Shown here in pieces: positions 5,372-50,503 of a stretch of 64,000 bases of DNA (position 1 is its first letter; each line of letters begins with the position of its first letter). The notes under the pieces were generated by a model, which worked only from the letters and a program-made list of their open reading frames with translations, had not been told where the DNA came from and did no database searches. This stretch comes from a virus. The stretch is from the IMG/VR virus record IMGVR_UViG_3300029825_000004; one strand, 5' to 3'. The translations under genes were made by a program, and so were the position numbers.

Positions 5372-5949
5372 AAAATAAATGTTCAGTTGAAAACTGTAGT
5401 TCAAAAATTCATGCTAAAGGACTATGCAAATACCATTATCAAACTCAATGGAGAACCGGAAAACCAACTGTTGAACGACGTTGTTATCACGAACCGATTG
5501 AAAAAAAGTTTTGGCATTATGTGGTTAAAGGAGCAATAAACGAATGTTGGGAATGGTTGGGATATAAAGATAAAGATGGTTATGGAAAAATAGGAACCCG
5601 GAAAACAAATATTGGCGCGCATCGCATATCCTGGGAATTGCATTATGGGGAAATACCGACTGGCCAAATGGTTTTACATAAGTGCAATAACTCTTCATGC
5701 GTGAACCCACATCATCTTTATCTTGGAGATCACCTTCAAAATATGCAAGACCGTTTAAACGCTGGTCATTATCTAAGAAATGAAGATCATCCAAACACTA
5801 AATTCCCAGATGAAATAGTCAGACAAATACGTAAATCTAATTTGACTTATCAACAGCTTAGCCAAAAGTACGGCATTTCAGAAAGCCAGATTGGTAATAT
5901 CAAGCGTGGAGAACAGCGAATTTTAGATGAAGGGAGCGAAGCCATTTGA
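5368..5949 (+). CDS. HNH homing endonuclease
   Basis: CWEW.G..DKDGYG, AHRISW, VLHKCNNSSCVNPHHL motifs and C-terminal HTH. Confidence 0.88.
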   Translation: MKNKCSVENCSSKIHAKGLCKYHYQTQWRTGKPTVERRCYHEPIEKKFWHYVVKGAINECWEWLGYKDKDGYGKIGTRKTNIGAHRISWELHYGEIPTGQMVLHKCNNSSCVNPHHLYLGDHLQNMQDRLNAGHYLRNEDHPNTKFPDEIVRQIRKSNLTYQQLSQKYGISESQIGNIKRGEQRILDEGSEAI

Positions 5950-7422: not shown

Positions 7423-7861
7423 ACCAAAAGCTAAATATCTTAATGGTTTTCGCAGGGAGCTAGTATTGTGGATACTCTCCCTGCAATTAATTTTAGAGAA
7501 CCATAGAGAGCACTTCAGGGGCAAAGAGCTTACCTGGCTGGATAGTATCATCCTTAGCATTGAAAACCTGTCCGAGCTAATGCTAGGCGGCTTAGAATTG
7601 ACCGAACTAAAGACCATTGAGAATGCCATAAAGAGAGTCGAGCCTAAACTGTACGCTGAAAAACTGGTTAATTCTCAAGAGCCTGCCGTCAAGGTGAATA
7701 TCGACCTACTTTACGACCTAGCAGAATTAGCATTGGAGTCCTGCCAGCATGACTGCAAACAAGACTTCGACAACTGCCCAAGGCGCAAGATGTTCTTAAG
7801 CCTGATGATTAAACCCTTCACGGAAACAGGTCCTTGTCAATATTGGAGGGGTGATGATTGA
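7415..7861 (+). CDS. Hypothetical phage protein (DUF5651-like)
   Basis: C-terminal DLAELALESC...CPRRK...CQY pattern. Confidence 0.6.
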   Translation: MAKPKAKYLNGFRRELVLWILSLQLILENHREHFRGKELTWLDSIILSIENLSELMLGGLELTELKTIENAIKRVEPKLYAEKLVNSQEPAVKVNIDLLYDLAELALESCQHDCKQDFDNCPRRKMFLSLMIKPFTETGPCQYWRGDD

Positions 7862-40663: not shown

Positions 40664-40770
40664 TCCAAACACCTGCCTTTCAGTGTCTGCCTGCAAATAA
40701 CAAAAGGCTTATATCAGGCAGTAGGCATCTGCTTTTCGGGAGCTACCCTAGATATAAGCCCTGTATTAAC

Positions 40771-44542: not shown

Positions 44543-44719
44543 ATGCCCAACAAGTACAAAGAGGGTACTAAAGCAATTTTAGTACGGATGCCGCAAGAGG
44601 ATAAAGAGCGAGTGGACCGGGCGGCAAAAGCCATAGGCACTACGACTACCGAGTTAGCGCGGCAAGCTATTTTTGATCGGGTGACCATGATAGAGCGGCT
44701 GCAAGGCGATAGCAAGTAG
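44543..44719 (+). CDS. Ribbon-helix-helix (CopG/Arc-like) regulator
   Basis: KAILVRMPQEDKERVDRAAKAIGTTTTELARQAI RHH pattern. Confidence 0.75.
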   Translation: MPNKYKEGTKAILVRMPQEDKERVDRAAKAIGTTTTELARQAIFDRVTMIERLQGDSK

Positions 44720-44844
44720 GTGCTTGTATTGCCCGTATGTCGGGCATCGTGGCTTTAGGTATATTTGGCGATTAATGCCGGTATGTATCGCCGGTTTTTG
44801 GGGATGCGTTGCATGTTTTCCTGCGTAATTTGCACAAAAAATGC

Positions 44845-44873
44845 TTGACGGTAGTTAACTACCATGGTATACT
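44845..44873 (+). promoter_or_regulatory. Strong sigma-A promoter with palindromic operator
   Basis: TTGACG-N17-TATACT; perfect palindrome GGTAGTTAACTACC at 44850-44863. Confidence 0.8.
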
Positions 44874-44879
44874 AGTATC

Positions 44880-45150
44880 AGATAGAGGGAGACACACGGC
44901 AGACCGGGAGTTGAACCCGGCAAGGCTCTACGAAAACCGCATACCACCCGCACCGGCTGGGAGGGCCGGAAGTAGCCGAAGACACATCTTATTTGCAAAA
45001 CCCCCGCGCAGCGAGATTGTATCCCTCGCGGGAGGACGGGAACGCCGGGAAGGGACCCGGGCAGAGGCGAAACTGGAAGCACCGGACACGGGGCGGGAGG
45101 GATGCACGGATGACGATCTTTGACAACTAAATACGGATGTCCCGCTAGAA
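44880..45150 (+). ncRNA. Candidate structured non-coding RNA
   Basis: GC-rich, several hairpins, directly after strong promoter, no RBS-supported ORF. Confidence 0.5.
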
Positions 45151-45153
45151 TCC

Positions 45154-45193
45154 TAGCATGAGCTCTAAGCATGAGCTCTAAGTATGAGCTTTA
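45154..45193 (+). repeat. 13-bp tandem repeat x3
   Basis: TAGCATGAGCTC TAAGCATGAGCTC TAAGTATGAGCTT. Confidence 0.8.
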
Positions 45194-45228
45194 GGGCTGA
45201 TGTGAGGATTTTAGGGAGGGATGATAAC

Positions 45229-45438
45229 ATGAAGATGGAAATCACGTTGGGAGCAGACGAAGCAGCCGCCATTGCGCAGGTTGCCGAGGAACTAGGGAAG
45301 GACCTAGAAACTGCCATACATGAGCTAGTCCTCCGGGGCTACGGACAGTGGCAGAACGAGCGGAGTATCCAGGCCATGCAGAGGCACAGCGAGGAGTACC
45401 GGAGAGTGCACCCGGTTAGCACCGGGCTGCAGAGATAG
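45229..45438 (+). CDS. Small protein, possibly RHH-like
   Basis: AGGGAGGG RBS; MEITLGADEAAAIAQVAEELGKDLETAIHELV. Confidence 0.55.
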   Translation: MKMEITLGADEAAAIAQVAEELGKDLETAIHELVLRGYGQWQNERSIQAMQRHSEEYRRVHPVSTGLQR

Positions 45439-45524
45439 CAGAGTGACGGGGAGAAATCCCTGGTAATGCGCACCGCTCAGTAGGGCGGTCCCGGTCACAA
45501 GCCCGGCAGAAAGGAAGGGGAAAG

Positions 45525-50466: not shown

Positions 50467-50503
50467 GCCTCAGTAGGTCAAGCGGCTTACTGAGGTTTTT
50501 TAT
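50467..50503 (+). terminator. Intrinsic terminator closing the leader block
   Basis: CCTCAGTAG...TTACTGAGG followed by TTTTTTATT. Confidence 0.7.

Follow-up and report, generated by a model that had tools for sequence, protein, structure and literature searches.

What is the function of the GC-rich stretch that follows a promoter near position 44880 of a 64,000-nt viral DNA (here called the window)? The window is a piece of a tailed-phage genome from fermentation metagenomes and carries small-terminase-like and radical-SAM genes, tRNAs, a group I intron, and several self-cleaving ribozymes. The phage and its host are probable members of the Bacillota. A preliminary description of the locus proposed a structured noncoding RNA (ncRNA) of ~270 nt and offered four roles for it: a protein sponge, an RNA anti-defense factor, a replication-control RNA for the nearby RepL-like gene, or an antiterminator leader. 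We asked what kind of transcript begins here, whether it is translated, and which role fits the sequence.

The near-consensus promoter that had been reported, TTGACG-N17-TATACT, is present and also has a TG extension (Table 1). Its spacer is filled by a perfect 14-bp palindrome, GGTAGTTAACTACC (44850 to 44863), which is likely an operator and is probably bound by one of the RHH proteins. The promoter and the GGTAG..CTACC half-sites are kept in four relatives (L129, L131, L137, and L172), and the palindrome centers differ among relatives. The L167 promoter has the left half-site GGTAG only; its right half reads CTATA. Upstream of the promoter, an RHH gene (44543 to 44719) closes with a hairpin and a T-run, so a new transcription unit begins near 44880. 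When the + strand was scanned from the promoter, no terminator-like site was found until 50467 to 50496. Because there is no terminator between the stretch and the 69-aa gene, the stretch is the 5' part of a ~350-nt leader of a 5.6-kb early operon. Thus, of the proposed ~270-nt ncRNA, the noncoding status and the position as the first sequence transcribed from a conserved early promoter stood, but the discrete 270-nt unit did not, since the leader runs to ~45228 and not to 45150. We infer that positions 44880 to 45228 are the untranslated leader of the first early operon of the phage, transcription itself being predicted. A possible second promoter at TTGACA (45120) was rejected because its spacer to TAGAAT is 20 nt.

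That the region is translated, either as a 104-aa open reading frame (ORF) on the + strand or as a 105-aa ORF on the - strand, we regard as barely credible. Open frames are indeed present, but they are expected because stop codons are rare in U-poor sequence: T makes up 15% of the leader versus 27% of the window. The leader is purine-rich, and from 44900 to 45200 the GC content is 0.59 to 0.65, with a strong A>T skew, versus ~0.44 nearby; the stretch had rightly been called GC rich. The 104-aa ORF (44809 to 45123) starts upstream of the -35 hexamer, has no RBS, and in natural variants is interrupted by single-base indels at 44981, 44995, 45017, and 45037. Thus, it is noncoding, in agreement with the initial claim that no RBS-supported ORF is present. 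The products predicted from the overlapping ORFs are Arg/Pro-rich and of low complexity, and the substitution pattern is not codon-like, which also argues against translation.

boxA is the signal that prevents rRNA transcription from stopping in bacteria, and boxA-type antitermination is textbook knowledge for the rrn operons of Escherichia coli and for phages lambda and T7. The E. coli boxA consensus is UGCUCUUUAACA, and the rrn leaders of Bacillus subtilis have a boxA-like AUGAUCUUUGAAA, which binds NusB, immediately after a small hairpin (PMC13753749). NusB-S10 recognizes the first 8 nt of boxA (PMC3177189). In the Bacillota, rrn antitermination is so far undemonstrated and is only now being approached biochemically (PMC13753749). 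We built the pattern GMTCTTTRAMA solely from these two published consensus sequences. Its sole exact match on both strands of the 64 kb lies at 45115 to 45125 (+), inside the leader and on the transcribed strand; the chance expectation is 0.35 in 128 kb. The core found there, GATCTTTGACA, conforms to the boxA consensus GCUCUUUAACA / GAUCUUUGAAA. With the degenerate first copy, the leader has boxA copies 45 nt and 235 nt downstream of the predicted start, both on the transcribed strand and neither in a credible ORF. The exact pattern recurs in three diverged leader types (L137, L167, and L172) and occurs at background rate in unrelated loci. In equilibrium folds, the probability that boxA is unpaired is 0.34 to 0.72, which is not consistently above the leader average. 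A 6-codon mini-ORF with a good SD (45110 to 45130) overlaps boxA copy 2. We rejected coding conservation through this mini-ORF because the boxA of L137 is in a different frame.

The relatives place boxA in a constant context. Behind the same operator-promoter, otherwise very different leaders share a core that consists of ACACGGCAGAC, a CCGG hairpin, CAAG or CAAC, and then a block of 12 to 14 nt. Hairpin 1 and CAAG/CAAC stand ahead of boxA in the window, L172, L167, and L137; the stem has 4 to 5 bp, and the loops differ. The block reads GATCTTTAACAA in L137, GCTCTTTGACAA in L167 (directly 3' of CCGG-CAGAA-CCGG and CAAG), and GCTCTTTGAAAAC in L172, which has two copies. A boxA-like GCTCTTTCACAG with one mismatch is found in L122, and L169 has one with two mismatches. 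Judged by its sequence, the conserved block is boxA. Compared with L167, the window has a leader of the L167 type in which the boxA region has been duplicated, with ~170 nt inserted between the two copies. Relatives L127 and L170 have short leaders without boxA, so the element is not indispensable. Furthermore, boxA needs only ~12 nt, and so it leaves the 170-nt insert unexplained.

TABLE 1 Features of the early leader and its operon (window coordinates unless a relative is named)
Feature	Position	Strand	Details
Early promoter	44845-44873	+	-35 TTGACG, 17-nt spacer, extended -10 TGGTATACT (TG extension, TATACT)
Untranslated leader of early operon (predicted)	44880-45228	+	~350 nt, U-poor (15% T)
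Conserved 5' core	44894-44945	+	ACACGGCAGAC, hairpin 1, CAAG, boxA copy 1, CCGCATACC (44937-44945); local alignments to L137 and L167
Hairpin 1	44904-44920	+	CCGGG-AGTTGAA-CCCGG
boxA copy 1, degenerate	44924-44937	+	GGCTCTACGAAAAC; 2 mismatches, TTT to TAC
Structured insert	44946-45113	+	~170 nt between the boxA copies; hairpin 2 (44953-44969), stem P3 (45001-45035), hairpin 4 (45045-45060)
boxA copy 2, canonical	45114-45127	+	CGATCTTTGACAAC; core GATCTTTGACA at 45115-45125
Helix	45145-45154 / 45205-45214	+	CTAGAATCCT / AGGATTTTAG; surrounds three tandem repeats of 13 nt (45157-45195); its end is at the first gene's SD; read from sequence
First operon gene	45229-45438	+	69 aa, no family match; RHH-like by eye only
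Type-P5 twister self-cleaving ribozyme	45437-45506	+	Directly after the first gene; 51.4 bits vs gathering score 37.6
Ribozymes of relatives	L122 4034-4110, 5117-5189; L137 1339-1413, 1614-1689; L167 3353-3429, 3646-3715; L169 544-623		

Because the boxA copies occur together with a small folded RNA domain, an antitermination leader is the most likely reading. Specifically, the stretch would be a Nus-factor (boxA) antitermination leader that acts in cis and not a free-standing RNA gene, a proposal to which we assign about an even chance. The antiterminator leader had been one of the four options offered, and it gains specific support from the boxA motifs. Nus-factor binding and antitermination themselves are predicted from these motifs. 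In the proposed mechanism, host RNA polymerase would start at ~44880, and the CCGG hairpin followed by boxA on the nascent RNA would recruit host NusB-S10. Together with NusG and NusA, this would give a processive, Rho-resistant elongation complex, as at rRNA operons. The Rho-resistant polymerase would then transcribe the 5.6-kb operon, with 350 nt untranslated at its front and a twister cut after its first gene. The rationale would be that ribozyme cleavage exposes ribosome-free RNA for Rho loading. The ~170-nt insert could serve the antitermination device as an accessory, or it could be a processed RNA. We found no intrinsic terminators inside the 5.6-kb operon; therefore, any benefit of antitermination must be against Rho. 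The leader is G-rich and thus a poor Rho substrate, which counts against the antitermination reading.

We compared the leader with known systems. Its resemblance is to the rrn leader (boxB hairpin, boxA, and boxC, acting with NusB-S10, NusG, NusA, and SuhB): both have a strong sigma-A-type promoter, a small hairpin, boxA, and an untranslated transcript. The order of hairpin and then boxA matches that of rrn leaders. The phage core GAUCUUUGA is identical to the B. subtilis rrn consensus, and the second phage boxA, which follows folded RNA, can be compared to the boxA of the 16S-23S spacer. However, this leader is phage-borne and feeds protein-coding genes, the RNA it encloses is ~170 nt and not rRNA, copy 1 in the window is degenerate, and boxC was not identified in the leader. 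The lambda nut site (boxA, spacer, boxB, and N protein) likewise has boxA in an early leader below an operator-controlled promoter, and GC hairpins with purine-rich loops lie next to it. In lambda, though, the order is boxA and then boxB, whereas here a hairpin precedes boxA, and the phage and its probable host belong to the Bacillota; a lambda-type nut site was rejected on the order of hairpin and boxA. The HK022 put RNAs are also folded early-leader RNAs that act in cis on RNA polymerase, but they work independently of Nus factors and boxA. In T7, a boxA element for antitermination follows the early promoters A0 to A3 (Savalia et al., 2010, as cited in PMC3709561). Like ours, the T7 element is a host-type boxA behind early promoters for host RNA polymerase, and it works without an N protein; T7 infects E. 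coli and has a single boxA, whereas the window has two boxA copies around a folded insert and self-cleaving ribozymes that punctuate the operon.

The genes behind the leader are also variable. The 69-aa protein of the window has no relatives in the viral contigs. Relatives with the same leader differ in their first gene, which encodes this 69-aa protein, a 79-aa protein that matches Rho_N weakly, or a 314-aa LPD29-domain protein that follows a truncated 69-aa start. These swaps were seen in L172 and L175 (2159 to 2400) and in L173 (2247 onward). A Rho_N-like first product beside a boxA leader may be worth attention. The near-identical L126 lacks, at its positions 5650/5651, 88 nt that correspond to window positions 45216 to 45303 and include the RBS, the start codon, and 25 codons at the beginning of the 69-aa gene; L126 has two copies of the 13-nt tandem repeat, of which the window has three. 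It thus seems that the phage can do without the first gene and that the number of repeats varies. In the early operon of the window and of several relatives, twister-P5 or twister-sister ribozymes are found only a few bases away from the stop codons of small genes, and relatives have such ribozymes behind several of their cistrons; that of L169 sits in the leader, ahead of the first gene. Cleavage by the twister of the window would release the leader together with the first cistron. The early operon looks built for cutting into monocistronic pieces.

The RNA had been described as structured, with three similar CCGG-type hairpins, and all three are present as perfect 5-bp stems. In shuffled sequences the mean number of 5-bp hairpins was 1.0 (p ~0.11). 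The form CCGG(G/C)-loop-(G/C)CCGG was found three times in 0 of 1,000 shuffles, this pattern having been picked post hoc. Global folding energy is not above that of shuffles: the minimum free energy z-score of the leader is -1.3 on the + strand and -0.4 on the - strand, and the analogous leaders of two relatives gave -1.5 and +0.2. CCGG itself occurs 7 times in the 271 nt from 44880 to 45150 (26 per kb) versus 3.7 per kb in the window, and it builds all three hairpin stems. The phage lineage encodes a C5 DNA methyltransferase (seen in L127), which may be set beside the CCGG-rich leader.

Conserved structure was sought in two further variants and a recombinant. The X4 variant, a contig of sequencing run X4, is ~84% identical over 44932 to 45067; L172, which has a full-length leader that is 87% identical, and the recombinant L175 were found through the neighboring RHH protein. 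The X4 variant has 15 substitutions, 11 of them in unpaired columns, and the rest make two compensatory double changes in one helix, with no pair broken. These two changes are in stem P3 (45005/45030, C-G to U-A; 45008/45027, G-C to A-U) and are found both in the X4 contig and in L172. L172 additionally has U-A to G-C in a small hairpin (45105 to 45116) and U.G to C-G in hairpin 2, and it has lost one outer pair of hairpin 2. In the alignment, called A5, 99.4% of cells are paired and 3 pairs are changed on both sides; when partners were slid by 1 to 3 columns as a control, there were no double changes. Helices are thus kept through compensatory pairs. The insert, which is absent from L167, L137, and L131, is a structured domain that is specific to one lineage and whose base pairing is under selection. 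Two other pairings that had been reported held up only in part. The GCGAG/CTCGC hairpin competes with the longer helix at 45001 to 45035, whose CCCGCG/CGCGGG core covaries, and the GCGGGA...TCCCGC pairing exists in the window but is lost in L172. G-tracts at 45030 to 45061 have G-quadruplex potential and would compete with hairpin 4.

No Rfam family matched the leader at its gathering score, and nothing better than E = 2 was found in 44700 to 45300 with E up to 10 allowed. Elsewhere in the window, the int-alpA RNA family matches 40690 to 40758 on the - strand (41 bits); this family is also found in relatives L121, L127, and L167. The minus strand of hairpin 1 reads as a textbook tRNA T-arm, CCGGG-TTCAACT-CCCGG, and of a cloverleaf only this T-arm-like hairpin is present. 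A tRNA or tmRNA on that strand was rejected: ARAGORN finds none here, and tRNA-Sec scores 14.8 bits versus a gathering score of 47. The hairpin-1 word occurs in >120 viral contigs, probably in tRNA T-arms, and is uninformative.

Could the RNA instead act in trans? The insert (about 44946 to 45113) might be excised, perhaps through RNase III cutting of a leader-trailer helix, to give a stable small RNA (sRNA) that acts as a protein sponge or in anti-defense; the boxA copies on either side would help to make and fold it, in the manner of a miniature rRNA operon. We consider this unlikely. The duplicated boxA copies do flank the insert, its internal helices are kept by compensatory changes, and a CRISPR protospacer variant has hairpin 2 unchanged. 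RNAalifold also predicts a leader-trailer-like helix between the boxA copies (44939 to 44960 with 45082 to 45105), in which L172 improves one pair (GCATACC/GGTATGC) and has one compensatory change. However, L172 and L175 break 4 to 5 cells of this helix, hairpin 2 competes with it, and the insert is restricted to one lineage. The particular trans roles that had been offered also lost ground. For a protein sponge of the CsrB/RsmZ type, which binds CsrA, GGA is not enriched (15 versus 12.4 +/- 2.2 in shuffles, p ~0.19). For a CRISPR-repeat decoy, that is, an RNA anti-CRISPR, there is no similarity above shuffles to the repeat of the candidate host G183 or to the I-C-type repeat end seen in run X4 (both described below). 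The lack of an Rfam family and the ordinary global folding energy likewise speak against a processed sRNA. Replication control of the RepL-like gene does not fit either: that gene lies upstream in divergent orientation, and the leader module has been exchanged by recombination independently of that gene. In a combined form, the boxA copies, the leader-trailer helix, and the covarying insert would make up a miniature rRNA-operon-like unit. There, the host antitermination/chaperone complex would make and fold a new class of processed sRNA as the first product, which would act in trans on a host target, and the same complex would carry the polymerase through the ribozyme-split operon. We think this a long shot.

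Two other readings concern what the leader does to its own mRNA, or whether most of it does anything. The leader might control mRNA stability or translation through the 5' SD-like GAGGGAG, GC hairpins that hinder exo- or endonucleases, and the 45145-45214 helix, which would gate the RBS of the first gene. This we judge improbable. The SD-like element (44885 to 44891) is 6 nt from the 5' end with no start codon at a usable distance. The leaders are U-poor (9% T in the 283-nt leader of L137), which fits nuclease protection, and the 3' end of the L137 leader pairs with the SD. Beside the SD, the GAATCC...GAGGATTTT motif (a GAATCC/GGATTT helix) is common to the window, L122, and L172; L167 has the 5' half, CTAGAATCC, only. 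Nevertheless, control of stability leaves the conservation of boxA unexplained, L122 and L169 lack the 5' SD-like element, and such control is compatible with the boxA reading and does not exclude it. Alternatively, most of the 270 nt might be mosaic filler from recombination between leader variants, with no function beyond promoter and RBS, for which we see a small chance. The locus is a recombination hot spot. L131 and L133 have the same or a related promoter and switch sequence after ~75 nt, L175 is a hybrid of two leader types, and L122 to L125 have another promoter and a 247-nt leader and share DNA only from 45499 on, a mosaic junction inside the 3' end of the ribozyme. The leader of L167 is 218 nt, L169 has a short one made of a boxA-like word and a twister-sister ribozyme, and L127 manages with 45 nt. 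Ordinary fold z-scores would also be expected of filler. On the other hand, the module from 44838 to 45522 is 98 to 100% identical in >10 contigs that come from several studies, including cases in which the RHH gene next to it has only 81% protein identity, compensatory changes keep the helices, and boxA is kept in diverged leader types. These observations argue for function, and the boxA antitermination leader remains our preferred reading.

A blastn search of 50,697 phage records gave no match to the leader, and the region is absent from the nearest virus record, G001. A scan of the viral contigs for two leader words and the operator-promoter pattern gave no match, and the core pattern matched there only in unrelated coding DNA (L163 to L166). 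We found no description of boxA leaders in Bacillota phages in the literature searched. Phage boxA leaders are already known in lambda and T7; the present leader adds a case from Bacillota phages, with the rrn-like order of hairpin and then boxA and a duplication around a small covarying RNA domain without a described family. The retention of a Bacillus-type boxA core across otherwise unrelated leaders is evidence from natural selection that the NusB-boxA pathway works in these bacteria, and the phage leader offers a compact test substrate for it in the Bacillota. The biological role of twister and twister-sister ribozymes is a long-standing open question. An operon punctuated by both suggests a testable reason for a Rho-resistant polymerase.

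CRISPR arrays give clues to the host. In a contig of run X4, the end of an I-C-type CRISPR repeat (...GTGCGTGGATTGAAAC) is joined directly to window sequence from 44757; a second host array may thus carry a spacer that targets the RHH terminator/promoter region (~44757). A host search through this I-C-type repeat gave 13 loci in scattered phyla and no spacer match. Among 401 Bacillota genomes searched, there was one significant match, a spacer of G183 to 44952 to 44979 (27 of 28 positions). The G183 array has 185 spacers and the repeat GTTTCAATCCCCTATACGCGGGTCACAAAC, and further imperfect matches link it to window positions 7832 to 7857 (24 of 26) and to L127 (28 of 30). These spacers point to a host lineage and to the leader as a CRISPR target. 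G183 encodes NusB and Rho and is, by these three imperfect spacer matches, a candidate host. Beyond boxA, its rrn leader has weak similarity to the phage leader (p 0.014 to 0.9), and whole-leader homology was rejected as not significant. The three rrn leaders of G183 each have a 5' hairpin and then AAG(C/T)TCTTGATAAAACTGAA (AAGCTCTTGATAAAACTGAA), a motif that resembles boxA copy 2 of L172, AAGCTCTTTGAAAACTGAA.
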